Source of the DNA: Elusimicrobiota bacterium
Lineage (GTDB): Bacteria; Elusimicrobiota; Elusimicrobia; F11
DNA length: 64,000 nt
Assembly (NCBI GenBank): GCA_044221725.1
Contig: JBGAON010000003.1
Location: 160,001 to 224,000, forward strand
Direction: 5' to 3'
Shown: one piece after another, positions 30,983 to 55,697 of the stretch
How positions within the stretch are numbered: the first letter of the stretch is position 1
Layout: each line of letters starts with the position of its first letter
The notes under the pieces: model-generated
Told to the model about the DNA's origin: nothing
The model's input: the letters and a program-made list of their open reading frames with translations, nothing else
Database searches by the model: none
Position numbers and translations under genes: made by a program

Positions 30983-30994
30983 ATCAATTTAAAA

Positions 30995-31026
30995 TGGATC
31001 CTGGCTAAAAGCATGCCGGGATGACG
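30995..31026. repeat. REP-like imperfect palindrome TGGATCCTGGC-TAAAAGCAT-GCCGGGATGACG
   Basis: ATCCTGGC pairs with GCCGGGAT; resembles the GGAT..CC...GG.ATGAC class of intergenic palindromes; single copy in the window. Confidence 0.5.
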
Positions 31027-31046
31027 AACGGAGAGAGAAGAAGACA

Positions 31047-31478
31047 ATGGCAAAACAAGTTAAAGCAATGGTGAAGTTACAGATTCCAGCAGGAGGCGCG
31101 AACCCCGCTCCGCCCGTTGGTCCCGCGCTCGGTCAACACGGCGTGCAGATCATGGATTTCTGCAAACAATTTAACGAGAAGACGAAAAAATTTGAAGCCG
31201 GCATGATTATCCCAGCGGTGATCACCATCTTCACGGATCGTTCGTTTACATTTATCACGAAGATGCCGCCGGTTCCTGCGTTGCTGAAAAAAGCCGCCGG
31301 TCTTGCGAAAGCGTCGTCCAAGCCAAACAAGGACAAAGTGGGCAACATCAACAAAAAGCAACTCGAAGATATCGCAAAACAGAAAATGCCAGACTTGAAC
31401 ACGCGCGACATCGACGCGGCGATGCGAATGGTCGCAGGAACGGCTCGTTCCATGGGCATTACGGTCGAGGGTAAATAA
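31047..31478 (+). CDS. rplK: 50S ribosomal protein L11
   Basis: [28 protein letters not shown]. Confidence 0.98.
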
Positions 31479-31479
31479 A

Positions 31480-32163
31480 ATGGGGAAAAGACAAAACGAA
31501 ATGGCGAAAAATTTTGACGCTTCAAAGAAATATTCTGTTCTTGAAGGCGCGAAGATCGTAAAGAAAAATGCGACAGCGAAGTTTGACGAAACGGTTGAGT
31601 TGCATGTTAAGTTGGGCGTCGATCCGAAGAAGACCGATCAAGCGGTTCGCGGCATTGCCGTGCTTCCGAAGGGGCTCGGGAAAAAGAAAACCGTTGTCGT
31701 GATTGCGAAAGGTGAGAAAGTGAAAGACGCGCAGGCCGCTGGCGCGGATCATGTTGGTGACGCCGATCTCATCGAAAAGATTTCCAAAGGTTGGACGGAC
31801 TTTGACGTGCTCGTCTCGACACCCGACATGATGAAGGATTTGTCGAAGCTTGGTAAAGTGCTCGGTCCCAAGGGACTCATGCCGAACCCGAAAGCCGGCA
31901 CCGTAACGTTCGACGTCGGTCAAGCAGTGAAAGAGCTTAAAGCCGGTCGCGTTGAATTTAAAATGGATGACTCGGCGAATCTTCATACCTCCGTCGGCAA
32001 AGCCTCTTTTGCTCCAGAGGATCTCGCGCAAAATATTGAAACCGTTTTGCACGCTGTATTTTCCGCAAAGCCCGCCACGGCGAAAGGAGTGTTCGTTCGT
32101 TCGGTAACACTCAGTTCAACGATGGGCGCTGGCGTTCGGCTCGCCGCAGAAACGGCAGCGTAA
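31480..32163 (+). CDS. rplA: 50S ribosomal protein L1
   Basis: KFDETVE, LGPKGLMPNPK.GTV, SSTMG. Confidence 0.98.
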   Translation: MGKRQNEMAKNFDASKKYSVLEGAKIVKKNATAKFDETVELHVKLGVDPKKTDQAVRGIAVLPKGLGKKKTVVVIAKGEKVKDAQAAGADHVGDADLIEKISKGWTDFDVLVSTPDMMKDLSKLGKVLGPKGLMPNPKAGTVTFDVGQAVKELKAGRVEFKMDDSANLHTSVGKASFAPEDLAQNIETVLHAVFSAKPATAKGVFVRSVTLSSTMGAGVRLAAETAA

Positions 32164-32175
32164 GAGCGCGCGTGA

Positions 32176-32676
32176 ATGGCTGATACACAAGAACCAACGC
32201 TCCAACAGCCCGAACTTACCCGACGCTCCTTCCTTTTGTGGGGATGGGGCGCTTTTCTCGCATTCCTTGCTTCGTCGGCCGGATCTGTTCTCCGCTTTTT
32301 CTTGCCAAACGTTCTCTACGAACCATCCCAAAAATTCCGCGCCGGCAAGGTTGTGGATTATCCTCTTGGCGTAACGATCGACAAAGCGCACCGCGTCTGG
32401 ATTATTCGCAACGACCAAGGTTTGTACGCGATGTGGGCGCGTTGCACGCACCTTGGTTGCACACCGAACTGGTTTCCCGCTGAATCTCGCTTTCGTTGCC
32501 CGTGTCACGGCTCCAACTTTTCTGCCGCCGGAGATGTGATCGCCGGTCCGGCACCAAAACCTCTTTGGCGTGTGCAAGTCACACAAACCCCGCAGGGTGA
32601 ACTCGTCGTCGATAAAGCCATCATGGAGAATCGTCCGGGCGTGCGGGAAAAACCACCGTTCTTCATTAATGTATAG
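32176..32676 (+). CDS. Rieske 2Fe-2S subunit of a bc-type complex
   Basis: Tat motif TRRSFL plus TM helix; CTHLGC and CPCHGS boxes. Confidence 0.93.
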
Positions 32677-32687
32677 TACGTCCCTTC

Positions 32688-34328
32688 ATGTTCCAAAAAC
32701 TCGATCCTAAGAAGCTTTTCGAAGATTTAACAAACACACAGGTCTGGCGCTCCATGTTCCGCGGTGGAACATGGAAAGACACGTCGCGTGACCGCGCGCA
32801 ACACATTCTTGGCAATGTTTGGTTGCACTTGCATCCAGCCCGCATCCGCCGTCGCGGAGTAAAGTTTACCTACACCTGGGGTTTGGGCGGCCTTTCTTTC
32901 TTCCTGTTTCTTGTTCTCACCGTGACCGGCATTGTGCTTATGTTCTATTACCGTCCAACGCCGGACTTGGCCTACCGCGATATGAAAGATTTGGAATTTG
33001 TCGTTTCGATGGGAAAATTCATGCGCAACATGCACCGCTGGTCTGCGCACACGATGGTTCTGTTTGTGATCTTGCACATGGTTCGCGTGTTTCTCACGGG
33101 GGCGTACAAAACCCCGCGCGAATTCAACTGGGGTGTCGGCGTCGTTCTTCTCGTCATCACTCTTTTCCTGTCGTTTACCGGTTATCTACTCCCATGGGAT
33201 CAATTGGCCATTTGGGCCGTTACGGTTGGAACCAACATGGCGAGCGCCTCGCCGTTTCTTGGAGCGGAAGGCCCGTTTTCAGCGTTATTGGGCGTCGGTC
33301 TTAAGAACGACGCGCGTTTCGGCCTTCTCGGTGGAACGGCGGTCGGATCCGCGACACTGGTTCGGTTTTACGTTTTGCATTGCATCGCGGTCCCGGTCAT
33401 TGCTGGTATTTTTATGATTGTGCATTTCTGGCGTATTCGCAAAGATGGATTTTCCGCAGCCCCAATCGACAACGAACCACCAACGCAAAAGATTGAAGTG
33501 TGGCCAAACCTCGTAGTTCGCGAATATCTCGGTGCAATTCTCATGTTGATCTTCTTGGTTGGTTGGTCGTTTCTTCAGAACGCACCCCTCGAAGGCATCG
33601 CGGATCCGAACGTGACACCGAATCCTTCCAAGGCGCCGTGGTATTTCTTGGGTCTTCAAGAGTTGCTCGTCTATTTTGATCCGTGGATTGCCGGCGTGGT
33701 TTTGCCGACGATCATTATGATTGGCCTTATGGCAATTCCCTATTTGGATCCGGATCCAAACCGTGGTGTCGGTTTTTATTCGTTCAAAGAACGCCCGTTT
33801 GCAAACATTATTTTCTTGGCTGGCATTTTCGCGTGGTTCGCGTTGATTGTCATCGGCACGTTCATGCGAGGACCGAACTGGCAGTGGTACTGGCCTTGGG
33901 AAAGTTGGCTTATTCACAAGGCGCCACCGCCGCCAACATCCATTATGCCGCTGGCTCTTGGCGCGCCGCTTATTGCAATTTATTTTGCGGTGGGAATGGT
34001 GCTACCGTTATTAATTAAGTGCGAAATTAACGTGAAGTCCTCTGTGAAAAAGATTTTTGGCGGTGCTTTTCTGTTGGCGCTCATTGTTGGGGTGTTACCG
34101 AGCTTTACGTTCGTGCAGGGCGCATGGGTTGGGTTTGGTGTAGGTCTTTATTTAATCATGGGCGTCATTTTGCCGACGCACTATTTGAAGGGCATCAGCA
34201 AGATCCGTTACACCGTGTGCATGGCGTTGTTGTTGATGATGATCGGCGTTTTCTTGAAGGTGACGCTGCGCCTTGGATTTAACATCAAATATATTGTTTC
34301 CATCCCACAAGTTAGCTTGAACGTCTAA
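32688..34328 (+). CDS. cytochrome b (b6-like N-terminal part fused to subunit IV-like part, extra C-terminal TMs)
   Basis: Four heme His (MHRW..ILH; LHC..IVH), [15 protein letters not shown]. Confidence 0.92.
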
Positions 34329-34329
34329 C

Positions 34330-35640
34330 GTGAAAATAGAAAATAAATTTCTCCAAAAATTGTTCATGCTGCGCTACTTATTTTTGTGGGGCAACGTTAT
34401 TCTCTTGTTGCTTTTTGTGGCCGTGCTCGTTCGAGACAATTGCCGCGGTTGGAAAGACTATCAAGTCGAATTCAAAAAGCGTGAAGTAGCGAAAGCGCAA
34501 GAAAAAGTTAATAACGCGCCGACCTCCGAGGCGAAAGAAGTGGCCCTCCAAGAACTGAAACAAGCAAAAAAGATGCCGATTGAGGTGCGCCAGATTTGGA
34601 CTCAGGAGATGAACGCCGTTGACCGTTGCATAACCTGTCACTTGGGCTACGATCCACTTCAAAACAGTTCTCTCACCACCGAGTACAAAGAGCATCCTTA
34701 CAGTGCCACCGGTGCTTCACCGGGTTTTGATATTCATAAAGCACACAATCTCGAAAAATTTGGTTGCGTTGTTTGCCACGGCGGACAAGGTCTGGCGACC
34801 GAAGTGAAAGCCGCGCACGGCGAAGTCGAACATTGGGAAAAGCCGCTCTTGAAAGGGGTTTTGCTCGAAGCGTCGTGCGTCAAATGCCACGATAACCATG
34901 CTGATTTGAAGATCAATGGAGAGATTTATACCGCCGACATCGTTCGCGCAAAAAAATTGTTCCGCGATAACGGTTGTATCGGTTGCCATCAAGTGGGTGG
35001 TGAAGGTGGTGTGATTTCCGTCGATTTGAAAGAAGAAACGTCGAACAAGCCGCTCAGTCGAATCGATTTTTCCCACACCGGATTGGATAAAGAACAGCGG
35101 ACGCTCGCGAATTGGATTAAGGTGCACCTCGTGAAAGATCCCGTGGATGTGACGCCGGGCGATCCAACAGCATCGTTCAACACCGAACCGATTGCGCCAT
35201 CCGGCATGCCGCCCTATTTGATGTCTGAAAAAGACGCCGATGCGCTGACCGCATGGGTGTTGAGCTTGAACCGACAAGGTATTCCGCCTCAATTCTTGAC
35301 GTTGCGGCCGCCGGAAGCGGAGCCCAATATTAGTGGTGCCGTGGCGAAGGGTCGCTACGTGTATGACAAGTTTGGTTGCGCCGCATGCCACGGTGCCGAC
35401 GCGCGCGGTGGAATTCGGGATTACAATGCGCAGTACGACGTTACACCGAATCTCCGTCGTGTGGTGGGGACTTACACACGCGAAGAGATCAAATCGAAAA
35501 TTTCGGAAGGTGTTCCGTTTATCGCGAAACACGATCCCAACGGGCCGACCCCGCCGTTTTACATGCCGGCGTGGAAGTCCAAGATCAAGGGCGACGACTT
35601 AGAGAACCTCGTCACTTACTTGCAGAGCATAAAAGAATAA
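34330..35640 (+). CDS. membrane-anchored pentaheme cytochrome c
   Basis: N-terminal TM; CITCH, CVVCH, CVKCH, CIGCH, CAACH. Confidence 0.92.
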   Translation: MKIENKFLQKLFMLRYLFLWGNVILLLLFVAVLVRDNCRGWKDYQVEFKKREVAKAQEKVNNAPTSEAKEVALQELKQAKKMPIEVRQIWTQEMNAVDRCITCHLGYDPLQNSSLTTEYKEHPYSATGASPGFDIHKAHNLEKFGCVVCHGGQGLATEVKAAHGEVEHWEKPLLKGVLLEASCVKCHDNHADLKINGEIYTADIVRAKKLFRDNGCIGCHQVGGEGGVISVDLKEETSNKPLSRIDFSHTGLDKEQRTLANWIKVHLVKDPVDVTPGDPTASFNTEPIAPSGMPPYLMSEKDADALTAWVLSLNRQGIPPQFLTLRPPEAEPNISGAVAKGRYVYDKFGCAACHGADARGGIRDYNAQYDVTPNLRRVVGTYTREEIKSKISEGVPFIAKHDPNGPTPPFYMPAWKSKIKGDDLENLVTYLQSIKE

Positions 35641-35682
35641 TTAGCCCTAGCTTTGCGTGGAATTTTCGATCAAGATGTAACT

Positions 35683-35760
35683 GGCTATCAGTTATCAGCT
35701 ATCGGCTGTCAGCCAGAAAGAATTTGAATATTGATAGCTGAAAGCTGAGAGCTGACAGCC
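35683..35760. repeat. inverted array of heptamer repeats (4x GCTATCA-like, spacer, 4x TGANAGC)
   Basis: GCTATCA GTTATCA GCTATCG GCTGTCA at 35684-35711; TGATAGC TGAAAGC TGAGAGC TGACAGC at 35732-35759. Confidence 0.85.
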
Positions 35761-35762
35761 AA

Positions 35763-37133
35763 ATGGCCGACGACAAATTTGACGTAATTGTAGTAGGAGC
35801 CGGACCCGCGGGAACATCCGCGGCGATTACCGCTGCAAAACTGGGATTGAACGTGGTGTTGCTTGAGCGCGGCGAATATCCTGGTTCGAAAAACGTGCAA
35901 GGCGCTGTGCTTTACACGAAAAATCTCGCCGACATCCTTCCTGAATTCTGGAAAGACCCGACCGCACCGCTGGAACGTTACATCACGACCCAAAACGTGA
36001 TGATCGCTTCTGATGATTCCGCAATCCAAGTTGGTTTTCGTTCGGATAAATGGGTTCAAGAGCCGCACAACTGCTACACGATTATTCGTGTGAATTTCGA
36101 CAAGTGGTACGCGAAAAAAGCGGAAGAGGCGGGCGTGCAACTTTTTACGGGTGTCAGAGTTTCGAAAGTCCTTCAAAAAGACAAAAAAGTCATTGGCATT
36201 GAAACGAGCGAAGGAGATCAGCTCTTCGCCGATGTCGTAATCGCCTGCGATGGCGTGAATTCGATGATTGCGCAATCGATCGGGCTGATCGATGAACTGC
36301 GTTCCGATGAAGTGGCGCTCGGCGTGAAAGAAGTGCTCGCGCTTCCAGAGGGCCGAATTCAAGATCGTTTCGCTCTTGAGAAGGGGGAGGGAGCGACGTT
36401 TGAAATTTTTGGTGGCGTGACGCGTGGAATGCTTGGTTACGCATTTCTTTATACAAATAAAGAGTCCATTTCTTTTGGTGTCGGTTGCAAGTTGTCGCAT
36501 TTCCAGCGAACGAACGCGCGCCCTTATGAATTGCTTGAAGCGGCCAAGAAACATCCCATCATCCGCCGATATCTTGCCGACGCCAAGCCGATCGAATATT
36601 CTGCGCACTTGATTCCGGAAGGAGGCTATTATTCTTTGCCGCCGCTTTACACCGACGGCTTTATGATTGCCGGCGATGCTGCGCAAATGATCAATCCATC
36701 GCACCGTGAAGGTTCAAATCTCGCAATGACGGCTGGCATGCTGGCCGCCCAAACGGCCGCCGAAGCAAAAAAGAAAGGGGATTTTTCGAAAGCGACGCTG
36801 GTTGAATATCAAAGGAAGCTCGAAGCATCTTTTGTGATTCCCGATATGGAAGACCATAAAGATTTGGAACACAAAATTGAGCGCAACATGGATTTGATCA
36901 CCGTTTATCCGGAGCTGGCCGCTCGTGCGCTGTACGAATACTTTACCGTTGACGGGCGTACCAAGAAGGATGTTCAAAAAAGTATTTTCCGCCGCATCCT
37001 CAAGACGCGATCCGTGAAAAATATTGTTCGTGACGTTTGGGGAATGGTGCACGCCGATGAGAAGAAGCCAACCGTGTGGGGTCTCATCAAAGAACTTTGG
37101 AAAATGAAAAGTGCATTTAAGAGGTTTGGATAA
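35763..37133 (+). CDS. fixC: FixC-family FAD-dependent ETF:quinone oxidoreductase
   Basis: GAGPAG, LERGEYPGSKN, FLYTNKES, EYSAHLIPEGG, GDAA; coupled to fixX. Confidence 0.88.
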   Translation: MADDKFDVIVVGAGPAGTSAAITAAKLGLNVVLLERGEYPGSKNVQGAVLYTKNLADILPEFWKDPTAPLERYITTQNVMIASDDSAIQVGFRSDKWVQEPHNCYTIIRVNFDKWYAKKAEEAGVQLFTGVRVSKVLQKDKKVIGIETSEGDQLFADVVIACDGVNSMIAQSIGLIDELRSDEVALGVKEVLALPEGRIQDRFALEKGEGATFEIFGGVTRGMLGYAFLYTNKESISFGVGCKLSHFQRTNARPYELLEAAKKHPIIRRYLADAKPIEYSAHLIPEGGYYSLPPLYTDGFMIAGDAAQMINPSHREGSNLAMTAGMLAAQTAAEAKKKGDFSKATLVEYQRKLEASFVIPDMEDHKDLEHKIERNMDLITVYPELAARALYEYFTVDGRTKKDVQKSIFRRILKTRSVKNIVRDVWGMVHADEKKPTVWGLIKELWKMKSAFKRFG

Positions 37134-37456
37134 TGGACGAAAAAAAAACAGAGAAGATTGACGTCAATATTGACGACAAGCTCGGCATGTTGACGTACAA
37201 AGCCGACCACAGTTTTGCTCACATTAAGATCAAAGATGCATCCGCGAATAGTCCGTGCGTGACAACCTGCAAAGAAAAACCGTGCACGCAAGTTTGCCCC
37301 GCGCGCGTTTACACGTGGGAAGAAGCACAGAAGAAAATTCTCGTCGCCTACGAGAACTGCATTGAGTGCGGTGCTTGCCGCATGTTGTGCCCGTTCGACA
37401 ATATTGCATGCGAATGGCCGCGCGGCGGCTTTGGCGTGCAGTACAAATTGGGCTGA
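37133..37456 (+). CDS. fixX: FixX-family ferredoxin
   Basis: C..KPC...CPA, ENCIECGAC...CP, WPRGGFGVQY. Confidence 0.9.
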   Translation: MDEKKTEKIDVNIDDKLGMLTYKADHSFAHIKIKDASANSPCVTTCKEKPCTQVCPARVYTWEEAQKKILVAYENCIECGACRMLCPFDNIACEWPRGGFGVQYKLG

Positions 37457-37460
37457 CCCG

Positions 37461-37514
37461 TTTACAAAAGATTTACATTCCATTAATCCGATCTTAATCG
37501 CGCATCCATAGAAT
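37461..37514 (+). promoter_or_regulatory. four 11-bp-periodic direct repeats plus -10 box; candidate OmpR/PhoB-family-activated, leaderless promoter
   Basis: TTTACA 37461, TTTACA 37472, TTAATC 37483, TTAATC 37494; TAGAAT 37509-37514; ATG 7 nt later; no SD. Confidence 0.6.
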
Positions 37515-37521
37515 TCGCGCT

Positions 37522-40500
37522 ATGGAAACGCCCCGTTTCGTTCGCGTAGTTGCTGGTTCGCTTTCGATTGTTTATCTCGCCACGAATTGCTTGTTCGCCG
37601 GTCGCGTGGAAGGGAACATCTGGCAGGAAAGGCGACCGTCGTCGGCCCCGAATGTTTTCATCCAGCGTCCCCGTATTCCTGCGGTACACACGGATCTTGG
37701 CTTGCGACGTGCGAGCATGATGGCATTGGCCCGCTTCGGCACCATTCGCAACGTTCAAAAATCCACTCATCCTTCTCCAAAAAATCCCGTGGTGCTCCAT
37801 GTTCAAGACGTTCACATGAACAGCGAAGCACAAAGAAATATTTCCGGAGCTCTTCAACAGCTGATTGACAATGAAAAGGTACGGCTGCTGGCATTGGAAG
37901 GGGCTTTTCATTCAATCGATTTAACGCCGTTTCGTAAATTTCCCGATCGAACGAGTGTTTTCAACGTTGCGGATTACATGTTGCAAGAAGGAAAAATTTC
38001 CGGTGCCATTCATGCCGCGGTCTTCGCTGAAAAAACAGTCTCGACGATTGGTATCGACGATTTTGGCCATTACAATGCAAATGTGGAAGCCGTACAAAAA
38101 TCGTTCGCGGCATCGAAAGAATTAAAACCGGAGATCCTGCGCTACGTGAACGATCTCGAAAAGAAAAAACAACAGACATTTGATTCTTCGCTGCTTCGGT
38201 TCGATAACACCGTGCAACAATATCGTAACCAGTCGCTTTCGTTGGGAGATTACGCTTCGGCGCTTTCTCGGATCGTGGATGCATCGTCGAGCGTGAAAAC
38301 ATTTCTCAAAGCACGTCGTCTCGAGTCAATCATTGATTTCTCTGCGGTCGCGCGCGCGCGTGCCGAGGCGCGTGAGAAAAATATTTCCCCGATCCATTTC
38401 CCATCGTTGATGCTTTACGATGATTACTTGCGAGCGGCAAAGTCAATTGATTCGGATGCGTTGGCGAACGAGTTGGAACACATGGAAAGCGCGGCGTTTA
38501 AAAAGCTTTCGCGAACACCGGCGGAGAGAGAGTTGATTGCGCAATCGCGCCGACTTTATCTGCTTGAGAAGCTTGTGAATTTTTCTCTGACCAAAAATGA
38601 GTGGGACGAATACGAGAACGAGCATCGTTCCGCGTGCGCTATACCTCACGAAAGGATTCAGCCGTTTGAGGCGTTTTATATGGAAGCGGAATATCGTGAC
38701 GCCGCGATGGCGATGAACTTTTTAAATCAAATCAATGAGATAAATGATGCAGACCAAAGCACCTTTGTGTTGGTCACCGGCGGCTTCCATTCTTCCGGCA
38801 TCGACAAACGCCTCGGCGACGCAGGCTGTACCGTGGTGACATTTATTCCAAAGATCACGAAGATCGACACCGTAAACGGTTCCGCGTATCTCAGTGTGTT
38901 TGCGCAAGAAAAATTTTCGCTCGATAAGCTGTTCGAAGGAGAAAAAATTTTCCTTTCGCCTTCGCCGATGTCGAAAAGCGCATTCGGATTGTTCGCCGTG
39001 CTTGTGGCGAGCGTTGCGCTGCTCACCAACGCAGTCTCCAGCGGGATTGCCGCTTCGTGGCTTCAATCAACACTGGCAATGAACGATCTTTCAATTGCAA
39101 AAGCAGGGGCGAACGCGGTGAACATTGTCTTTGGACTTTATGGCGCGCACCTTGGCATCACGTTCTTGAGCGGAGCCGCAGGGGCGATTCGGCCAGAGCT
39201 TTCTATTGCCCGCCAGAAACCGGATTTCGGTCGCTGGTTCCCTTCTTCAATTCGGGAATCACTCGAGCACTTCATGCCGTGGTTCGTGCCGCAGCACATT
39301 GCGATTCGGCGGTGGCCGCTGTGGATTGGTTACGCAATGATTGTCACGTGTGGCGTTGCGTTTCCGGTTCTTTTTTCTGAGTTTGTCTCTGTCGTTCCCT
39401 CCGAAGTGTGGATGTGGACGGGCGGTGTTGTTGCGCACGAATTTTATAACCGGCTGGCAAAAGTTATGGGTTGGCCCATGTTGACCCGTGTGGTTCTTGC
39501 CCAAGATTTTTTAACGGCCGAACAGGAACAGAGCTTGGCTCGCGAAATGGATTCAATATTCGATTCGATGTTGCCGGTGCTGCTGGATAATGAAAAAGCC
39601 CAAGATTTGTTGCTTCGTCTTCTCAAGTCCGATTTGCACAGAAGAATAAATCTGAATCTTGTCATCCAGGCGGATGTGCAGGCGCACAAAAAGGGAAAAT
39701 TTTGGATTCGGCCTGGTTTGACTGCCAAAAACAACGTTCGAATTGCAGACCTCATTCAAGTCCTAACTCGCACTCCCAGTTCCGAGCTTTATGCGCAGAT
39801 CAAAGATTGGCATGAAAAAAACAACGATCTTTCTTTGAATTTGAGGAATTTGACGTTGAGATTTTTGCACGGATTTCGAGAGCTTTCTTATTCTGAGAAA
39901 CAACAACGACAGATTTCGAATTGGATAAGAACCTATGAAGATACAAGGAACATGCTGGTACGACCTTATGTGGGCATCGTCACCGGTCTTGCAAAAAAAT
40001 TTACAAGACAAGGACTGTCAATCGATGAATTGGAATCTGAGGGCTACAGTGGATTGCTTGCGGCGGCCGAACATTATCGCGTTGGGTTTGGACGTTTCAG
40101 CACTTTTGCGACTCCATCAGTGAGAAGAAGCATGCGCGTCGCTGTGTTGCGGAAGGCAAAAGAGAACGCGCCCGAGCGCACGCTGACGGAGTCGATCGCT
40201 GGCGAAGAAATTGATTACGATTCATCGAAATACGAGGAATTATTGAAGCAGGTGTATCAATTGCCGCGGCGAGATCAATTTGTGTTGTCTCAATATTACG
40301 GATTGAATGGCCTGGACCCGGAAAAGCTTGAACAAGTGGGGCGTCGCCTGGGTTTGTCGGTGGAACGAATTCGCCAAATAAGAAACCGCGCGCTGGATAG
40401 GCTTCGAGAGCGCCTGACGTCGCCGACAGGCGAACTTCGGGAGGAAGAAGAGGGTGCGCCTATCTCGAAAAAGCTGAACAGACAGAACGTTATTGATATG

Positions 40501-43413
40501 TTGACCAACGTTTCTCCATCCGTGTTAATGTCTCATGAGGCCGATGTTTTAAGAATGATTTTCGGTATCAATGGTCGTGTGCCGCTTACAATTCAAGAAA
40601 TCTCGGAAGCCACAAAATGGTCCGAATGGCAAATTGAAAGAATCCGCGATGCGGCGCTCGATAAATTGATGAAGGCCCGTGTTCATGAGCACGCATTCGG
40701 AAGGGGGATTCTTCCTTTTCTCGCGCGTGAGTCAAGATTTCTGCGCTTGAAGGGGCATACGCGTTCCGCCTCTTTAATAGAAAACGTTGTTTTTCCTTCC
40801 CTTGAAGAGCTTGTCTTTAGTTTTGGAGCGGTTTACGTGTTCGGCGCGTACGGACTCATTATCGCACGCGTGATTCATGTGGCGTTGCATTTGCTAGGGC
40901 CGCCATTATCGGATCGTGGCGCTCAAAATGTTTTTCGAAAGCTTTTTATTCCTGTTCTTATTTCTGTTGCGCCGTTTTCCTTCCTTGGTGTTCCGAGTCT
41001 TTCTTCTTCGGTGTTTTCGGTAAGTGCGGCTTTTGATGTTGCTGCGCAGTTTTTCGAATGGCACGTTGTCTTTAATTCGCTCGTCGATTTGACGGGCGCG
41101 ACCGTCGCCAAAGCCAATTTGCCAACGAACGACGACATCGTGGGGCCGTATCGCATCCTTCGCGAAATCCGGCCGCAAAGCGCCCGAGCCGTGGCGGTGT
41201 ACGAAGCCGTCCACGTTGAGACAAACGCCAAAGTCATTCTTAAAACGTATCTTGATTTTCCAACGAATTCTCAGGAGTTTTTAAATGCGCATTCCCGTGA
41301 GGTTCGCAACCTCTGGCTGCTCACGCAAAAAGGGATCAATTTCGTTCCCAAATTAATTGATCAAGGCGTCGATTATCACGGCGCGGTTCCGCGATATTGG
41401 TTTGCGATGGAATTGGTCGAAGGGAAAACGCTCGACAAATGGCTCGCCGCCAATGCGAGCTACCACGATCGCTTGCAGGTGTTTCGAAACTTGTTGGTGG
41501 TCGTTGACCGTTTTCACCGAGAGGGATATGTTCACCTGGATCTTACGGCCACCAACATCATGGTGCTGCCAGACAATCAAGTGATGCTTATCGACGTCGA
41601 ATTGATGCAGTCGCTTGAGGTATCCCTTCAACAATTTGTGCTCGGTGCGCCCGCTTATGCATCGCCGGAAACACGGGCGGGTTTTCGGGGAGTTTATACG
41701 CGATCGGCGGATGTTTTTTCTCTCGGTGTAATACTGTTTTTAATGAGCACGGGCATGTCAAAATTGGAACGCCATCCTGCGAACGACGGGGTTTTCTCTT
41801 CGTTGGTAACTCGATATCCAGATGCGGATATATATGAATGGGTTCGCGCCGAGATCGCCAAGCAATCCCCTTGGGCAGTGTACGGCGATGTGATCTCAAA
41901 GGCACTCCGAGCCAACCCGCATTCGCGGTTCACATCCGCTCGGAATTTTCTGAAGGCCATGGACGACGCAGCGGTGCACCACGCTTTGGATGTTTCGAAA
42001 GCGATGCAAGCCATTGACCGCGCTTTTTACCTTGAAGACACAAAAGTTGTCGACGTCACAACCGCTCCTAATGATCTGATGATTTACACCGTTGAGCCGG
42101 AATGGAAAACGGGTCTTGCTTTGTTAACCCAGGAACTATCGTCGCCGCATCCTCGATTCCAACTGGTCATGCGGAATTCGAGATTAATAGGAATTGTTCC
42201 CACCGAAACGCGGCGGGATTCGAGTTTTCGGTATTTGTCTTTGGCCGATTATCAGTACGATCCTCCGGATTATTCCATTGGGCTTTCGAATAAGTGGAAA
42301 GAAATTTTGAAACAAAGCAGCGAGGACGAAGCACGCCTCGAGGAATATTTGCGATCACGCGGGCGTACCGATCGCGAGATCCAAGGCGGTCGTCTCAATG
42401 GATTCGGTGATCATTGTGTTGAACCTGCCGTGCTTGTTGATCTGGGCACGTCGATCACGCTCACATCCATTCGGTCACCTCTCGAACACCCACAGCCGCT
42501 GTTGGCGAGTCGTCGACAAGCCGAAAACTTTGTGATTCAGGTTTTGCCCACCGTCTCTTCTCCGATCGGCAAACAGAATGGCGGATACGAAAAAGCGGCT
42601 GAGGATCGGAAATACTATTTCAATGTTACGAATGTCGCGGAGACATACGATAAGAAAAACGGGCCTGGTTCGTGGAAGGGAAAGAAAAGAATTCGAGTCG
42701 TTGGCTGCGGAACCGGCTGTGACGCGGTCGCCGTGTTGGTGGGTGCAATAAATTATCACGGACATTCGATTGCTGACTTAAGGGACTATATTCGTATCAA
42801 CGAAAGAGTGCCCGAATGGGCACCGATTATCGATGCCAGTGACATAAACCCGGTGGCGGTTGAAAACACGAAGCTCACATTTGACCAACTTGGGATTTCA
42901 GCGGTCGTCTACGCGCATGTGACGGACAACTTGCTGTCTTCGATTCCAACCACGGAGCTCGCCGACGTAATAATTTGGAACATGCCATCTTATCCAGCCG
43001 ATAAATTAGCGGATCAATTGGCCGATTATGCTGATGGCGGCGCCAACGGCAAGATTGCGCTCGACATTTTAACGGAAAGGCTATCGGCGAACTTGGCCGA
43101 TGGCGGCGTGGGAATTTTTGGGAACTACCAAACGCCGGTTATTTTAGACGGAACGCAACGCGATCTTGTTCGATACAAGTTGGTTAACAGCGCAGGGGCT
43201 CGTGAGCGAGGCATGACCGTTCAAGGGGGAGGATTGTATGGCAGCCGCGAGGTCTACGTAACGCATGTGCCGTTGACCCAATCACCGGTGACGCGAATGG
43301 ATGTTGGTCTCAAGTTTCGTTTGGAACATAATCAACAAAACAATGAGCTGCCGAAAATCCCGGTCCGTCACGAGGACTGGATCGAGCGTCGCGCCATTTT
43401 GGGCGGTGCTTAG
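37522..43413 (+). CDS. 1963-aa multidomain membrane protein: N-terminal alpha/beta domain, TM block, sigma70-like r1.2/r2/r4/r4, TM block, Ser/Thr kinase-like domain, class I SAM methyltransferase
   Basis: HVQDVH..EAQ.NI / LEGA / TGGFH; EGYSGLLAA..RFSTFA; LSVERIRQIR.RAL; VILK, HLDLTATN, YASPE, DVFSLG; VGCGTG, DINPVAV, WNMP. Confidence 0.85.
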   Translation: METPRFVRVVAGSLSIVYLATNCLFAGRVEGNIWQERRPSSAPNVFIQRPRIPAVHTDLGLRRASMMALARFGTIRNVQKSTHPSPKNPVVLHVQDVHMNSEAQRNISGALQQLIDNEKVRLLALEGAFHSIDLTPFRKFPDRTSVFNVADYMLQEGKISGAIHAAVFAEKTVSTIGIDDFGHYNANVEAVQKSFAASKELKPEILRYVNDLEKKKQQTFDSSLLRFDNTVQQYRNQSLSLGDYASALSRIVDASSSVKTFLKARRLESIIDFSAVARARAEAREKNISPIHFPSLMLYDDYLRAAKSIDSDALANELEHMESAAFKKLSRTPAERELIAQSRRLYLLEKLVNFSLTKNEWDEYENEHRSACAIPHERIQPFEAFYMEAEYRDAAMAMNFLNQINEINDADQSTFVLVTGGFHSSGIDKRLGDAGCTVVTFIPKITKIDTVNGSAYLSVFAQEKFSLDKLFEGEKIFLSPSPMSKSAFGLFAVLVASVALLTNAVSSGIAASWLQSTLAMNDLSIAKAGANAVNIVFGLYGAHLGITFLSGAAGAIRPELSIARQKPDFGRWFPSSIRESLEHFMPWFVPQHIAIRRWPLWIGYAMIVTCGVAFPVLFSEFVSVVPSEVWMWTGGVVAHEFYNRLAKVMGWPMLTRVVLAQDFLTAEQEQSLAREMDSIFDSMLPVLLDNEKAQDLLLRLLKSDLHRRINLNLVIQADVQAHKKGKFWIRPGLTAKNNVRIADLIQVLTRTPSSELYAQIKDWHEKNNDLSLNLRNLTLRFLHGFRELSYSEKQQRQISNWIRTYEDTRNMLVRPYVGIVTGLAKKFTRQGLSIDELESEGYSGLLAAAEHYRVGFGRFSTFATPSVRRSMRVAVLRKAKENAPERTLTESIAGEEIDYDSSKYEELLKQVYQLPRRDQFVLSQYYGLNGLDPEKLEQVGRRLGLSVERIRQIRNRALDRLRERLTSPTGELREEEEGAPISKKLNRQNVIDMLTNVSPSVLMSHEADVLRMIFGINGRVPLTIQEISEATKWSEWQIERIRDAALDKLMKARVHEHAFGRGILPFLARESRFLRLKGHTRSASLIENVVFPSLEELVFSFGAVYVFGAYGLIIARVIHVALHLLGPPLSDRGAQNVFRKLFIPVLISVAPFSFLGVPSLSSSVFSVSAAFDVAAQFFEWHVVFNSLVDLTGATVAKANLPTNDDIVGPYRILREIRPQSARAVAVYEAVHVETNAKVILKTYLDFPTNSQEFLNAHSREVRNLWLLTQKGINFVPKLIDQGVDYHGAVPRYWFAMELVEGKTLDKWLAANASYHDRLQVFRNLLVVVDRFHREGYVHLDLTATNIMVLPDNQVMLIDVELMQSLEVSLQQFVLGAPAYASPETRAGFRGVYTRSADVFSLGVILFLMSTGMSKLERHPANDGVFSSLVTRYPDADIYEWVRAEIAKQSPWAVYGDVISKALRANPHSRFTSARNFLKAMDDAAVHHALDVSKAMQAIDRAFYLEDTKVVDVTTAPNDLMIYTVEPEWKTGLALLTQELSSPHPRFQLVMRNSRLIGIVPTETRRDSSFRYLSLADYQYDPPDYSIGLSNKWKEILKQSSEDEARLEEYLRSRGRTDREIQGGRLNGFGDHCVEPAVLVDLGTSITLTSIRSPLEHPQPLLASRRQAENFVIQVLPTVSSPIGKQNGGYEKAAEDRKYYFNVTNVAETYDKKNGPGSWKGKKRIRVVGCGTGCDAVAVLVGAINYHGHSIADLRDYIRINERVPEWAPIIDASDINPVAVENTKLTFDQLGISAVVYAHVTDNLLSSIPTTELADVIIWNMPSYPADKLADQLADYADGGANGKIALDILTERLSANLADGGVGIFGNYQTPVILDGTQRDLVRYKLVNSAGARERGMTVQGGGLYGSREVYVTHVPLTQSPVTRMDVGLKFRLEHNQQNNELPKIPVRHEDWIERRAILGGA

Positions 43414-47941: not shown

Positions 47942-49594
47942 ATGAACAAAGCAAAATTGAAGCTTTGGTGGGACGACAATTGGATGTCCCTTATGAAGTG
48001 GTTGTTGATCGTGCTCAGCCTTGGGCTCACGATCGTCGGCTCTTATGTGTTTTTGTTCCAACTCGAGTCCTTCCAGAAGCAATCGCTGCTCGCGAGTTTT
48101 CCTATTTATTTGTTCAACGCGGTGGTCAGCTCGCTCGTGTTTGTTTTCGGCTACCGGTACTTCATGATGGGTGGGATGTCCAAGCTGTCCTCGCAGTCAC
48201 GCAAACTCGATGCTCAATTCATAAAAATTAAGTTTTCCGACGTCATTGGCCTCGAAGAAGCGAAGCGCGAGGCGCTCGAAGTGGTGTCGCTCATTCGCGA
48301 CCGCGCGCTGGTCAAACGAATTGGTGGCAAGATCATCAAAGGTATCTTGATGCAAGGCCCGCCGGGCTGCGGGAAAACGTTGCTTGCGAAAGCCATCGCC
48401 GCTGAATCAGGGATACCGTTTCTCGCGATTTCCGGGAGTGAATTTGTCGAAGTGTTCGTCGGTGTGGGCGCTTCGCGTGTTCGGCAATTAATGAAGCGGG
48501 CACGTCTTTTGGCCGAAGCGCACGGCGCGTGCATTGTTTTTATCGATGAGTTGGACGTGATCGGACGAGCGCGATCGTTCAACGCGTTCGGTGGTTCCGA
48601 AGAAACAAACTCCACCCAAAACGAATTGTTGGTACAAATGGATGGTATTCAGTCCGGGTCCGACAAGCTGATTTTCATTGGCGCAACGAACGCGGCCGAG
48701 TCGACATTGGATCCGGCGTTGCTTCGCCCGGGTCGATTCGACCGAAAAATTTATGTTGGCAAGCCCCATCTGAAAGAACGGGAAGATCTGTTCCGTTACT
48801 ATCTCGGAAAAGTGAAAGCCGATCCCAATTTGGAAATGAAAAAGCTTGCACAGCGGACCGTCGCAAAGTCTCCAGCCGATATTGAATCGGCCATAAAAGA
48901 GTCTGCTTTAATCGCTGCTCGTGAAAGTCGCGACATGATTACGCTTAAGGATTTATCCCAGGCATTTGAACGTATCGACCTCGGGATTGCGCATCGTTTG
49001 CCCATGACCGCGAAGGAGAAGGAAACAGTCGCCACGCACGAAGCAGGCCATCTGGTTACGGTTTACAACGAGCATCCCACGCATGACGTTTTTAAAGCGA
49101 CGATTTTGCATCGCGGTGGAGCGCTCGGTCACGTGCTACCGGTACCCCGCGAGGAACAGTACACGAGGTCGAAACCAGAATTGATCGCGAACATCAAAGT
49201 GGCTCTCGCCGGGTTTCTTGCTGAGAAAATTAAATATGGAGTAACGAGCACGGGCGCCTCGTCGGATTTCGCGAACGCCCTGTCGCACGCGCAGGCGATG
49301 GTTTGGGAATACGGCATGGGCACAAGTGGCATTCTCGGTAATTATGCGATTGTTCAGAACAATCAGACCGTTTTCATGCTTTCCGAATCATTAAAGAACC
49401 AGTTGAACAGCGAAGTGCAAGCCATTCTTCATGATTGCGCGAAAGAAACCGAAGCGTTCTTGCGCAAAGAATGGGAGATGGTTGAAATTTTCGGGAAGCT
49501 CTTAATTGAAAAAGAAGAGCTGAATTACGACGAGATCGAAGAAGTCTTTGCCGCGCACGGCAAATCTCGTCCGACGCCGCCCGCCAGTCTGTAA
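47942..49594 (+). CDS. FtsH-like AAA+ zinc metalloprotease (short form, almost no periplasmic domain)
   Basis: Two TMs, GPPGCGKT, FIDELD, LLRPGRFDR, HEAGH, GASSD. Confidence 0.9.
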   Translation: MNKAKLKLWWDDNWMSLMKWLLIVLSLGLTIVGSYVFLFQLESFQKQSLLASFPIYLFNAVVSSLVFVFGYRYFMMGGMSKLSSQSRKLDAQFIKIKFSDVIGLEEAKREALEVVSLIRDRALVKRIGGKIIKGILMQGPPGCGKTLLAKAIAAESGIPFLAISGSEFVEVFVGVGASRVRQLMKRARLLAEAHGACIVFIDELDVIGRARSFNAFGGSEETNSTQNELLVQMDGIQSGSDKLIFIGATNAAESTLDPALLRPGRFDRKIYVGKPHLKEREDLFRYYLGKVKADPNLEMKKLAQRTVAKSPADIESAIKESALIAARESRDMITLKDLSQAFERIDLGIAHRLPMTAKEKETVATHEAGHLVTVYNEHPTHDVFKATILHRGGALGHVLPVPREEQYTRSKPELIANIKVALAGFLAEKIKYGVTSTGASSDFANALSHAQAMVWEYGMGTSGILGNYAIVQNNQTVFMLSESLKNQLNSEVQAILHDCAKETEAFLRKEWEMVEIFGKLLIEKEELNYDEIEEVFAAHGKSRPTPPASL

Positions 49595-49599
49595 GCCGA

Positions 49600-50814
49600 A
49601 TGACCGACCACAATCCGCCGGACGACAAAAAGAACGATTTTGAATTTCCGTCGTTGCACGCCGATGAGCCGGCGGCTCCAAGCGAGCCTGTTGCCCCAAC
49701 TCCGGCAAGCAACCCCGAGCAGCCAAAGCCCAAACCACGTTTCGTTTTTCCGAAGGAAAAGATTCAAGATTGGGTTTTAAAGAACAAATCGACGGCGCTT
49801 TTTCTTGGCTTTGTAGTGATTGCTATCGGCATGTACGGCATCAAAAAGTTGCGCGGAAACGGCGAAGGAAAAGTCGACAACGTTGAATCAACGAGCGCGC
49901 AACCGGACGAGATTCCGGTCAACGCGATCGAAGCAAAGCTTGGGCGCTTCCAGGACACGATTAATGCGGTTGGAACGTTAAAAGGCGAAGCGGAAATCGA
50001 GCTGCGGTTCCAAGTGGACGGCCGCATCGAAGAATTGAATATCACGCCGGGTCGCAAGGTTCACCGTGGAGAAATTCTCGGGCGACTGAGCGAACGCGAC
50101 GCCATGCTGAAAGTGCAACGCGCAAAGAACGAACTGGAACAAACCGAAAAACTTTATCAATTGGGAGGCGTCTCCAAGACGAAACTGGACGAATCGCGTT
50201 TGAATCTCGATGTCGCGCAATCGGAACTGGACAAAACCCGCTTGGTGGCCACGCGCGATGGAATTGTGGGAGAGCGTGAGGCGGATGTCGGAGAATTTGT
50301 GACGCCCCAACGAAAGGTGTCCACACTCGTATCTATAAAGCAGGTGCTCGTGAAGGTTGGCATTATCGAGAAGCAGGTGGATAAGGTGTATCCCGGACAA
50401 AAAATGCTCGTAACGGTGGACGCGTATCCTGGAAATATTTTCGAAGGAACGATTGAAAGCATTTCGCCCATTATCATTGGTGAAAGCAAAACGTTCGAAA
50501 TCACGGCCAAAATTCCGAATCCCGATAGCCTTTTGTTGCCGGGTATGTTTGCGCGCACGCGCGTCATTACGTACGAAGCGGATGACGCCATTTCGGTTCC
50601 GAACGACGCTCTGATCAAATCCAACACGGGCTTCCAGTTGTTTGTCGTGAACAAAGACAACGTAGCGGAAGCGCGCGATGTTCAAGTCGGTTACGTTTCG
50701 ACGGAAAACACGCAGATCGAATCCGGTTTAACAGCGGGTGAAGTGGTGATTGTGCAGAAACCACCCGAGCTAAAAGCCGGCTCCAAAGTAAAAATTATCG
50801 AGGTTCAAAAATAA
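49600..50814 (+). CDS. RND/ABC-type periplasmic adaptor (membrane fusion protein)
   Basis: Pro-rich N-terminus, TM, lipoyl-hairpin pattern, LLPGMFA, VPNDAL, GLTAGEVVI. Confidence 0.88.
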   Translation: MTDHNPPDDKKNDFEFPSLHADEPAAPSEPVAPTPASNPEQPKPKPRFVFPKEKIQDWVLKNKSTALFLGFVVIAIGMYGIKKLRGNGEGKVDNVESTSAQPDEIPVNAIEAKLGRFQDTINAVGTLKGEAEIELRFQVDGRIEELNITPGRKVHRGEILGRLSERDAMLKVQRAKNELEQTEKLYQLGGVSKTKLDESRLNLDVAQSELDKTRLVATRDGIVGEREADVGEFVTPQRKVSTLVSIKQVLVKVGIIEKQVDKVYPGQKMLVTVDAYPGNIFEGTIESISPIIIGESKTFEITAKIPNPDSLLLPGMFARTRVITYEADDAISVPNDALIKSNTGFQLFVVNKDNVAEARDVQVGYVSTENTQIESGLTAGEVVIVQKPPELKAGSKVKIIEVQK

Positions 50815-52268: not shown

Positions 52269-52299
52269 CAACATCCGTATAAGTCGTAAGAGGTGAAAA

Positions 52300-55635: not shown

Positions 55636-55697
55636 TTCAGCGTATCTTAACCCGACCTTAAGGCATCCTTAATCCCACGCTGTTACGATTCTGTTAC
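55636..55697 (+). promoter_or_regulatory. four 11-bp-periodic direct repeats plus extended -10 box; candidate OmpR/PhoB-family-activated promoter
   Basis: TTCA 55636, TTAA 55647/55658/55669; TGn-TACGAT 55684-55689; CTGTTAC twice at 55680 and 55691. Confidence 0.6.

Follow-up and report, generated by a model that had tools for sequence, protein, structure and literature searches.

Cassette polyproteins with CPBP/Rce1-like membrane modules in an Elusimicrobiota bacterium: a putatively co-regulated family of possible self-cutting effectors

The 64,000-nucleotide stretch of DNA from an Elusimicrobiota bacterium analyzed here (the window) contains an open reading frame of 1963 aa, free of internal stops (37522..43413, + strand). 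Its product, P0001, belongs to a family of 26 paralogs occupying 181 kb of the 2.82 Mb genome (6.4%). The reading proposed, to which a probability of about 45% is given, is that of a co-regulated family of cassette polyproteins in which CPBP/Rce1 modules cut the chain and the enzymes act in a host or prey. The paralogs are built on one plan, in which a signal peptide and a conserved head precede cytoplasmic cargo that differs from member to member and the chain mostly ends in Ala; their frames are intact (800 to 8800 aa). The features of P0001 are collected in Table 1. An earlier note on this DNA had inferred a modular cassette protein and had suggested a search for paralogs keeping the N-terminal domain with different cargo. 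That search gives these 26 genes, with one head and differing cargo, and the idea is upheld by the relatives, where cassettes are duplicated and inserted. No same-site ortholog of the gene is found in the five relatives compared, the site being empty in all five; one of them has another member of the family about 2 kb from the empty site.

Table 1. Features of the P0001 gene and of its upstream region, with a second copy of the upstream element (positions in the window).
Feature	Position	Strand	Description
38-bp upstream element	37461..37498	+	Four half-sites, 11-bp spacing: two TTAC-type, two TTAA-type
-10-like hexamer	37509..37514	+	10 nt 3' of the element, 7 nt 5' of the ATG
Signal peptide, Sec/SPI-type	37522..37602	+	Basic n-region, hydrophobic core, small-residue end; by eye and hydropathy
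Conserved head domain	37699..38961	+	Putative TIKI/TraB/ChaN-fold hydrolase
Membrane module 1	39244..39486	+	Short form of a CPBP-like core, with HxxxN at its end (H639, N643)
RpoD-derived sigma cargo	39487..40686	+	Region 1.2/NCR-like part, regions 2, shortened 3, and 4
Membrane module 2	40699..41121	+	Four-helix CPBP/Rce1-like core; alignment A1
Hanks-type Ser/Thr kinase cargo	41134..42006	+	PF00069
Two-domain cassette	42007..43161	+	Unannotated domain and HemK2/PrmC-like class I methyltransferase
C-terminal tail	43366..43410	+	Ends in a small residue and Ala; putative export or degradation signal
Second copy of the 38-bp element	55636..55673	+	28.4 bits; precedes an 8766-aa FG-GAP/Fn3 surface protein

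The sigma factor, kinase and methyltransferase that had been read in this single frame are all recovered. Three Pfam matches are above the gathering cut-off: Sigma70_r2 (PF04542, residues 812-878, E 8e-9), Sigma70_r4 (PF04545, residues 913-963, E 3e-13) and Pkinase (residues 1225-1473, E 3e-19). The methyltransferase part has no significant Pfam match (PrmA, E 0.74) and is recognized by HemK2/PrmC-like NCBIfam models with E values of 1.7e-5 to 0.013, below their cut-offs. The sigma cargo contains a second region-4-like copy, has 26% identity with the genome's own RpoD, and scores 75 bits with the RpoD equivalog TIGR02393 for a cut-off of 354. Homologous sigma cassettes are found three times in L089 and twice in L090, as module-plus-sigma repeats. 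The tryptophan pair of region 2.3 serves promoter melting; it is replaced in P0001 and in the three L089 cassettes, and one Trp is kept in L090. To judge from these residues and from the shortened region 3, the P0001 sigma is RpoD-derived and yet not a normal primary (group-1) sigma, so that the term «primary-type» used earlier does not apply.

Five kinase residues are recognizable by eye, which we take to be the catalytic Lys, Glu, Asp and Asn and the metal Asp; the glycine loop is missing. Homologous kinase cargo occurs in P0138, P0228 and P0159. The unannotated domain (no usable match in the Atlas for residues 1490-1720) occurs together with the methyltransferase in C2:127821, P0151 (4 copies), P0155, L077 and P0101. 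What had been set apart as an «unknown region» moves with the methyltransferase as one cassette. The cargo of the family includes also adenylate kinase, hexokinase, DHQ synthase, PP2C, FHA, GGDEF, beta-CASP, GT5 and WD40 domains; no classic toxin domain is found among the scanned cargo.

The mature start following the signal peptide bears a short conserved motif, whose strict form is found in 9 of the 26 paralogs. In the head, D96, H98, E126, R392 and H423 are each kept in 76/76 aligned heads. PF04187 matches the P0001 head weakly (E 0.0013) and is above cut-off in 1 of the 22 paralogs scanned (E 5e-7). The catalytic set of RRSP (2His/2acid plus Arg; PMC6254334) was taken as the reference, and the residues of the head were matched to it by order and spacing, not by structure. 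As in the TIKI superfamily (TraB/Tiki, EreA/B, ChaN, RRSP; PMC6254334), the head contains acid-x-His with a Glu 28 residues on, then an Arg and a His about 30 residues apart, all invariant. It differs from RRSP by its Glu-to-Arg gap (about 270 residues vs. about 70) and by Asp in place of the first Glu. A PDB sequence search with the head profile gave noise only, and all the Atlas clusters matched by the head are without a name. The head is described here as a putative TIKI/TraB/ChaN-fold hydrolase. It occurs in 17 of 31 relatives and in 70 of 201 genomes of the phylum, with homologs in named proteins of Omnitrophota, Endomicrobiaceae and Auribacter. At the other end of the chain, the last residue is Ala in 21/26 paralogs vs. 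169/1873 other ORFs, and in 13/15 and 43/50 distant homologs. The tail PSSM gives 4.9 bits for P0001, a score reached by only 1 of the 1873 non-family ORFs. One homolog of 4770 aa carries SecA DEAD.

The 38-bp element preceding the polyprotein gene has a leave-one-out score of 33.8 bits. Scores of at least 14 bits are found upstream of 25/26 family genes vs. 10/1873 other genes of the genome. Among these other carriers, mostly giant surface or secretion genes, are those of giant surface proteins, genes of PorV-like and of T9SS-tail type, and an OEP/AcrB operon. In other genomes it precedes 47/63 family genes vs. 0/63 control windows, and the 7 genes of distant lineages that were tested all score lower than 14 bits. 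An OmpR/PhoB-type activator is the putative regulator that binds the element; nine regulators of OmpR type are candidates, the first of them at 52300-52992 of the window. The Pho regulon was considered and rejected, the element scoring −6.2 bits before the phoB-like gene and −5.6 bits before the pstS-like one. Many paralogs have, by eye, hexamers similar to that of Table 1 at a like distance from the element, and the start of the polyprotein gene would be near-leaderless. No canonical sigma-70 promoter is present in 37130-37530.

Whether the polyproteins act in another cell is, in our estimate, evenly balanced. It is rather unlikely that they stay at home, i.e., that P0001 lies in the producer's inner membrane with its head outside and its cargo in its own cytoplasm, where the modules would tether or release it by a kind of regulated intramembrane proteolysis. 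Lys and Arg make up a fraction of 0.13-0.14 in both module flanks and in the middle loop, compared with 0.014 in the two remaining loops; this positive-inside bias places the cargo on a cytoplasmic face. Moreover the signal is of Sec type, and no injection machinery is identified: neither a conserved neighbour, nor an immunity gene, nor a delivery machine is seen around the 26 family genes. The hydropathy of P0001 shows the signal helix, then hydrophobic helices at residues 487, 607, 1097 and 1141, and that at residue 487 could bring the chain inside. However, this helix is not a conserved feature: one lies within 60 residues of the head in only 16% of 223 members. By a simple hydropathy rule, which misses weak helices, the stretch from the signal-bearing head to the first module is free of predicted helices in 37/86 proteins, and 5/238 have none anywhere after the head; one of these five carries a kinase, and some members without any such helix carry ATP-dependent cargo. 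Two more points argue against a role at home: (i) the cargo duplicates housekeeping enzymes of the same genome, with only 24-41% identity; (ii) the rapid turnover of genes and cassettes suits conflict more than housekeeping. The delivery to another cell evoked in the earlier note is supported only indirectly, by this topology argument and by the co-regulation with surface and secretion genes; both the export and the target are what we infer.

The membrane modules are almost certainly homologous to CPBP/Rce1 proteases, from the following profile and motif comparisons. The iterated module profile gives 27.1 bits for module 2, which is in its training set, and at most 8.1 for decoys. Module 2 alone has no Pfam match, and PF02517 matches 7 of 37 aligned family modules (best E 8.4e-7). 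Searched against 1.84 billion proteins, the profile retrieves 167 matches; 97 of these are large and new, 73 of them with the head, and of the 38 short ones scanned, 19 pass the Pfam cut-off as CPBP proteases and 2 more match below it. By hhalign, the profile and one retrieved CPBP are aligned with a probability of 93% (E 2.5e-7). It should be noted that single-module jackhmmer searches hardly extended, so that anchored profiles were required. A PDB sequence search with the profile gave noise only. No stand-alone CPBP above cut-off is present in the genome, and neither modules nor heads were found in its other long proteins. Modules are detected by profile in 108-128 of 250 family proteins, i.e., about half of the family is without a module. 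The profile has no match in six distant polyproteins (L124-L128, L119), and 3 in 50 Omnitrophota-side homologs.

Like CPBP/Rce1 (PF02517; MmRce1; MrtX), the family modules have a core of four helices in which Glu, FxxxH and HxxxN follow one another. They differ in being the core only, repeated within a polyprotein, with the second Glu and the Arg mostly lost. The strict four-residue motif is found in 45/374 family membrane blocks (12%) vs. 0/404 non-family blocks (shuffled: mean 1.9, maximum 4; reversed: 1), and any HxxxN in 37% of the family blocks. In 181 profile-found modules (non-gap cells), the first Glu is kept in 89%, the second Glu in 38%, and the His of motif 2 and of HxxxN in 94% each; the last position of HxxxN is Asn in 89% and Asp in 9%. 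The seeds of the profile were picked by motif; hence blind tests were added, and in the Glu-blind one an upstream Glu is found in 68/119 modules vs. 16 in shuffled ones (maximum 28). The motif-1 Arg is kept in 27 of 144 modules. Module 2 of P0001 has E1095, E1096, H1123, H1181 and N1185; the full EExxxR is not present, i.e., EE without Arg, and at the FxxxH position H1123 is present while His replaces Phe at 1119. Module 1 has two clear helices and a candidate Glu just 10-13 residues before the His, without the normal Glu-to-His spacing, and is outside the set of full-motif modules; a similar short module is found in P0026.

In motif 1 of CPBP, the first Glu is catalytic and the second structural, and the non-catalytic CflP lacks the first (PMC13692083). 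With the residues they retain, the modules are probably active. That they cleave their own chain could equally well be true or false; a candidate cut site is the small-residue motif that follows them. This motif is found in 66/152 post-module windows vs. 4/146 controls, with a PSSM trained on the very post-module windows scored. Its distance from the module varies from 3 to 32 residues, and it has no Cys or CAAX, unlike Rce1-type substrates. After module 2 (about residue 1192) it scores 9.1 bits, the top value in P0001, this window being in the training set; after module 1 (about residue 650), outside the training set, it scores 5.4 bits and has rank 4 in P0001. A motif on both sides of the modules was rejected (upstream, 18/144 vs. 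18 shuffled); there being no enrichment upstream, the sigma would keep its C-terminal tether. The word R[AGS]PP is enriched (81 occurrences in the family and 4 elsewhere) and was considered as a DNA recombination site, a reading not supported because 23 of the sites differ at the third positions of their codons.

It is unlikely that the modules are non-catalytic anchors of CPBP fold, or translocation aids, and that the chain stays whole or is cut at other sites by the head or by housekeeping peptidases. There is a precedent, CflP and Abx1, which function without catalytic residues (PMC13692083). Many membrane blocks are degenerate or of other kinds, the head itself retains a protease-like site, and a few members hold rhomboid, S8 or signal-peptidase-II domains or internal prepilin-type sites. 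These last are minor, since a regex matches 6 sites within the family and another 6 elsewhere, of which 3 convince on inspection. Against simple anchors, decay affects the structural second Glu and the Arg whereas the catalytic first Glu and the His/His/Asn are retained, and a distinct motif follows the module at a variable distance. Processing in the membrane, as supposed in the earlier note, gains a concrete mechanism since the blocks are CPBP cores with their catalytic residues kept; the cleavage as such stays conjectural.

The assembly of the gene is confirmed by other data. A contig of run X1, possibly the source, covers it entirely, and contigs of three other studies (X4, X5 and the RNA run X7) match it at 99% or more, without joints. 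The X7 contigs match parts of the gene and are not evidence of transcription. The junctions are bridged as follows: head/membrane block 1 by X4 record 5, block 1/sigma by X5 record 11 and X7 record 22, block 2/kinase by X4 record 8, kinase/unknown region by X5 record 15, and unknown region/methyltransferase by X5 record 17. No bridging piece for sigma/block 2 is present among the contig pieces listed. In two relatives' pairs, modules have dN/dS values of 0.15-0.19, and head and cargo values of 0.19-0.44; the family is under purifying selection in relatives. An assembly chimera (the risk raised earlier) or a decaying junk fusion of captured genes is hardly credible and largely refuted: the very divergent cargo, the absence of the exact sigma/kinase/methyltransferase combination from 30 relatives and the sigma/block 2 junction would fit it, but the jointless contigs across five junctions, the 26 intact paralogs, the conserved upstream element and tail and dN/dS values below 0.45 in all 12 comparisons do not. 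The AT-richness noticed by eye in the sigma segment is real and modest: its GC is 0.468 vs. 0.519 ± 0.020, a value under that of every one of the 137 family windows. Nor is this peculiar to the sigma segment, since GC3 is lower in block 2 (0.462) than in the sigma segment (0.487), and the fixC-like gene upstream has a GC of 0.495; this is weak evidence for capture.

The self-cutting, exported polyprotein favoured here would work as follows: (i) an OmpR-type regulator would turn on the family along with genes for giant adhesins and for the outer membrane or secretion; (ii) signal peptide, head and C-terminal tail would direct the protein out of the producer; (iii) the modules, in which the outer loops of the four helices are short and the flanks basic, would enter a membrane from its cytoplasmic side; (iv) each intact module would cut at the small-residue motif just downstream, P0001 giving head plus module 1, sigma plus module 2, and a free kinase-methyltransferase piece; (v) the sigma fragment would bind core RNA polymerase without RpoD-like promoter melting, as a decoy or redirector, while the kinase and methyltransferase would modify target proteins.

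In MARTX toxins, domains are released by a built-in protease. Like MARTX toxins and polyvalent proteins (PMC6254334; PMC5512222), the family strings unrelated effector-like domains in one variable chain, and for polyvalent proteins release through a built-in protease has been proposed (PMC5512222). The family differs from both in that its genes are dispersed over the chromosome and its cargo units are separated by protease cores embedded in the membrane; its cargo is mostly metabolic or regulatory, and no RTX repeats, CPD or zincin are seen in the scans. Myxosortase MrtX is an example of a bacterial CPBP able to process proteins that are exported (PMC11980579). The closest likeness is to the Archaeovorin-type, multi-enzyme giants of Omnitrophota and Elusimicrobiota, for which cleavage and a predation role have been proposed (bioRxiv 10.1101/2023.11.21.568195; bioRxiv 10.64898/2026.06.07.730766; PMC12419801). 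These likewise have a signal peptide, an unannotated N-terminus, many membrane helices and divergent cytoplasm-type enzymes. They exceed 10,000 or 30,000 aa, SecA DEAD being a mark of the archaeovorins over 30,000 aa, whereas P0001 has 1963 aa, belongs to a 26-gene family and contains no SecA, C39 or S8 domain. As far as their main texts go, CAAX and sigma are mentioned in neither preprint, CPBP, Tiki and promoter not in 10.1101/2023.11.21.568195, and Rce1 and TraB not in 10.64898/2026.06.07.730766. A literature search, with subscription journals mostly outside its reach, found no paper describing this polyprotein anatomy. P0001 is read here as a variant of the known multi-enzyme giants.

A wider view is possible though doubtful: Elusimicrobiota, and probably Omnitrophota, may hold an undescribed effector-delivery system of dozens of co-induced self-cutting polyproteins, of which the giant proteins would be long versions. 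A TIKI-protease head, a C-terminal export tail and insertion into the membrane of another cell would be its parts; CPBP self-cutting would free captured enzymes and decoy sigmas, rewiring the metabolism and transcription of the target. In bioRxiv 10.1101/2023.11.21.568195, whether giants work whole or cut is stated to be open, with no known cleavage points. P0001 offers a small unit for this question, i.e., a 140-residue protease-like module with four candidate catalytic residues and a predicted cut site, and the shared upstream element and C-terminal tail point to candidate regulators and export partners. If the reading is true, a CPBP protease would act in cis within a polyprotein and sigma factors would serve as weapons or manipulators, in a family which fills 6% of a genome and extends to host-associated Endomicrobiaceae.

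The polyprotein gene is, as the earlier note had it, a single unbroken frame. The three domains read in it fared unequally: sigma-70 regions 2 and 4 and the protein kinase exceed the Pfam cut-off, while the methyltransferase is HemK2/PrmC-like by NCBIfam (E 1.7e-5), i.e., under the model cut-off. The idea of a modular cassette protein is borne out by the paralogs: the first 480 residues (the head) are common to 26 proteins of the genome (775-8862 aa) and the cargo differs. The polyprotein is thus real and modular, with a conserved anatomy. Coordinates are collected in the table.

Features of the window around the polyprotein gene
Feature	Positions	Remarks
nusG-rplK-rplA, then directly Rieske, cytochrome b and multiheme cytochrome c genes (by eye), then fixC-like and ferredoxin-like genes	30440-37456	
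38-bp element, four half-sites at 11-bp spacing	37461-37498	upstream of polyprotein gene
Polyprotein gene (+)	37522-43413	1963 aa
FtsH, RND adaptor, histidine kinase, OmpR-type regulator, hybrid kinase, NtrC-type regulator	47942-55491	candidate control and export hub, just before the 8766-aa giant; FtsH is a second, shorter copy, 39% to main FtsH
OmpR/PhoB-type regulator	52300-52992	one of nine in the genome
Start of 8766-aa FG-GAP/fibronectin-III surface protein	55703-64000	runs on to C5:242003; element upstream

The family genes total 181 kb of the 2.82 Mb genome. The scan took in 22 paralogs, one of them incompletely: cargo is recognised in 13, two match the head family only and seven have no match. 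The cargo includes adenylate kinase, hexokinase, DHQ synthase, PP2C, FHA, GGDEF, beta-CASP nuclease, GT5, phosphorylase and WD40, with 24-41% identity to the genome's own counterpart where present. Other built-in proteases occur in the family, since P0040, P0025, P0048 and P0063 carry rhomboid, S8 peptidase or signal peptidase II domains as cargo. Close pairs differ by blocks inserted, lost or duplicated, e.g., 900 residues inserted in P0036 relative to L051. The relatives with names are Elusimicrobiota. The head is present in 17/31 near genomes and 70/201 genomes of the phylum, patchily: 45/60 in family f16, which we infer to be Endomicrobiaceae, and 0/61 in f7. It is also found on named Endomicrobiaceae, Omnitrophota and Auribacter proteins. 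The site of the polyprotein gene (fixX/synthase junction) is empty in the 5/5 relatives examined.

Several side features were noticed. Three family proteins, C3:275504 (at residue 592), L071 (residue 5043) and L079 (residue 4240), have a type IV prepilin-like cleavage motif inside the chain, with a hydrophobic helix behind it. In the cargo regions of the family the word R[AGS]PP has 81 occurrences, often in membrane-block loops, against 4 in the remaining proteome. Two family genes are directly preceded by 321-aa ORFs (C2:188164, C1:244467) that have a common N-terminus and look by eye like transposases. The genome has eight ORFs >5000 aa (up to 18,006), of which only the 8862-aa ORF is a family member.

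Five residues of the head (D96, H98, E126, R392, H423) are unchanged in 76/76 heads. They have the same local spacing as the RRSP/TIKI set (Glu-x-His, Glu 28 further on, Arg, His) in the accessible part of its description (PMC6254334); the head is therefore likely a TIKI-type hydrolase, PF04187 matches being weak. At the other end, the final residue is Ala in 21/26 paralogs vs. 169/1873 other ORFs, and in 13/15 and 43/50 of two sets of distant homologs. The C-terminal tail is read as a putative export or degradation signal. Three short stand-alone heads have no final Ala. L129 and L130, from two other genomes, are head-only (567-623 aa), without C-terminal Ala, possibly the ancestral stand-alone form.

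In the membrane modules, the density of basic residues in the middle loop and both flanks is tenfold that in the two short loops, so the cargo would face a cytoplasm. The head sits behind a Sec-type signal, and, by admittedly crude predictions, in 37/86 proteins no helix separates the head from the first module, while 5/238 (one with a kinase) lack any helix after the head. Head and cargo would thus lie on one side, which sits poorly with plain insertion into the producer's own inner membrane and would be more readily explained by export of the chain, followed by insertion from within into the membrane of another cell, where the modules would cut it. We hold this reading tentatively (probability about 0.45). 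That the protein instead remains in the producer is the less likely reading: the polyprotein does have a helix at residue 487 and no delivery machine was identified, but the proteins lacking predicted helices argue against it.

By homology, many of the family's membrane blocks are cores of CPBP proteases. In block 2, Pro-x-x-Glu-Glu is accompanied by HxxxN and by a His four residues past the motif-2 position, but the block gave no Pfam match when searched alone; block 1 is a shortened form. PF02517 is matched by 7/37 aligned modules. Against 1.84 billion proteins, the module profile gave 167 matches; among the best 150, the head is carried by 73/97 large new matches listed, and of 38 short matches put through the scan, 19 exceed the cut-off as ordinary CPBP proteases. 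Since the seeds were chosen by motif, blind tests were added. With blocks set by hydropathy alone, the strict motif is found in 45/374 family blocks vs. 1.9 shuffled, 1 reversed and 0/404 non-family; in modules detected without Glu, Glu is found upstream in 68/119 vs. 16 shuffled. The polyprotein's own modules, CPBP homologs, lack the full EExxxR.

That the modules are non-catalytic anchors is unlikely, even though a module is detectable in only about half of 250 family proteins and the strict motif in only 12% of blocks. Across 181 modules, conservation is 89% for the first Glu, 38% for the second, 94% for each of the two His and 98% for Asn/Asp. In the accessible parts of the sources, the first Glu of CPBP is catalytic and the second structural, the non-catalytic CflP lacks the first (PMC13692083), and MrtX has the same catalytic residue set (PMC11980579). 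The family pattern is, as judged from sequence, of the catalytic type and not that of CflP. Purifying selection shows in relatives' proteins (the L071/L079 pair and L089 internally) rather than the window's own gene, with dN/dS of 0.15-0.19 for modules, 0.29 for the head and 0.19-0.44 for cargo.

An artefactual gene, e.g., the chimeric assembly raised in the earlier note, is highly improbable: one contig of a run that is possibly the source spans it, contigs of three other studies match it joint-free at at least 99%, and independent contigs cross 5/6 domain junctions among the pieces listed (none of these bridges sigma/module 2). The RNA contigs among these are no proof of transcription.

Downstream of the HxxxN helix lies the candidate cut site, a seven-residue motif, small and hydrophobic, usually with Pro (EM log-likelihood 181 vs. 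about 109 shuffled). It reaches at least 6 bits in 66/152 post-module windows, which are its training set, vs. 4/146 control windows. Since its distance from Asn varies (3-32 residues), it is probably not a helix cap but a site that is recognised. The best site of the polyprotein is residue 1192, after module 2; the fourth-best is residue 650, after module 1, which is absent from training. No enrichment was found before modules, so that after cutting each cargo would still be held by the module that follows it, with only the last piece free.

Downstream of the element of the polyprotein gene, a -10-like hexamer follows after 10 nt and the ATG after 23 nt. At a threshold of 14 bits (family genes scored leave-one-out), it is found at 25/26 family genes vs. 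10/1873 others, and in other genomes at 47/63 vs. 0/63 controls; 0/7 distant-lineage genes were positive. Of the ten non-family genes, three encode giant proteins; the others are PorV/UPF0164-like and T9SS-tail genes, the gene that opens a TPR-OEP-AcrB cluster, and one gene each for a histidine kinase, a TPR protein and what looks by eye like a tRNA-modifying enzyme. The direct-repeat geometry is reminiscent of OmpR/PhoB-family sites; the Pho regulon was ruled out. Copies without a family gene behind (C3:793566, C2:130413, C3:188841, two just downstream of a family gene) may be left over from genes since lost, or may mark additional members of the regulon. Beyond the window, the 8766-aa protein is followed by PorV-TPR, TPR, OEP, two AcrB genes and an 8369-aa giant with element and C-terminal tail, without head.

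Sigma cargo recurs in the family: L089 has three sigma cassettes in alternation with four modules, L090 has two cassettes, and further sigma parts are in L048, L044, P0266 and P0066. Aligned with the genome's RpoD, the cargo has region 1.2/NCR-like sequence, region 2, a short region 3 and region 4. In the polyprotein and all three L089 cassettes, other residues take the place of the region 2.3 tryptophan pair. Such a sigma could bind core polymerase yet melt promoters poorly, hence the idea of a decoy. The segment is AT-rich as first noted by eye (GC 0.468 vs. 0.519 +/- 0.020, the lowest of 137 family windows); this is little evidence of capture since the adjoining sequence is likewise below the genome average.

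No description of the TIKI head, repeated CPBP cores, tail or upstream element turned up in the literature searched, though preprint supplements may list such domains; a keyword search of PMC11257099 (Endomicrobia) gave no match. The accessible parts of the sources note huge proteins in Elusimicrobiota (PMC11573180, PMC12057145), define multi-enzyme giants (Omnitrophota preprint 2026, bioRxiv 10.64898/2026.06.07.730766) and tie Omnitrophota giants to prey attack (PMC12419801). The giant-gene preprint of 2023 (bioRxiv 10.1101/2023.11.21.568195), in its accessible part, describes Archaeovorins and suggests that C39 or S8 domains cleave them, at points stated to be unknown. Archaeovorins being defined by size and SecA, the polyprotein is not one of them. 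Polyvalent proteins offer an analogy (PMC5512222, in part). The polyprotein would work like a self-processing effector polyprotein.
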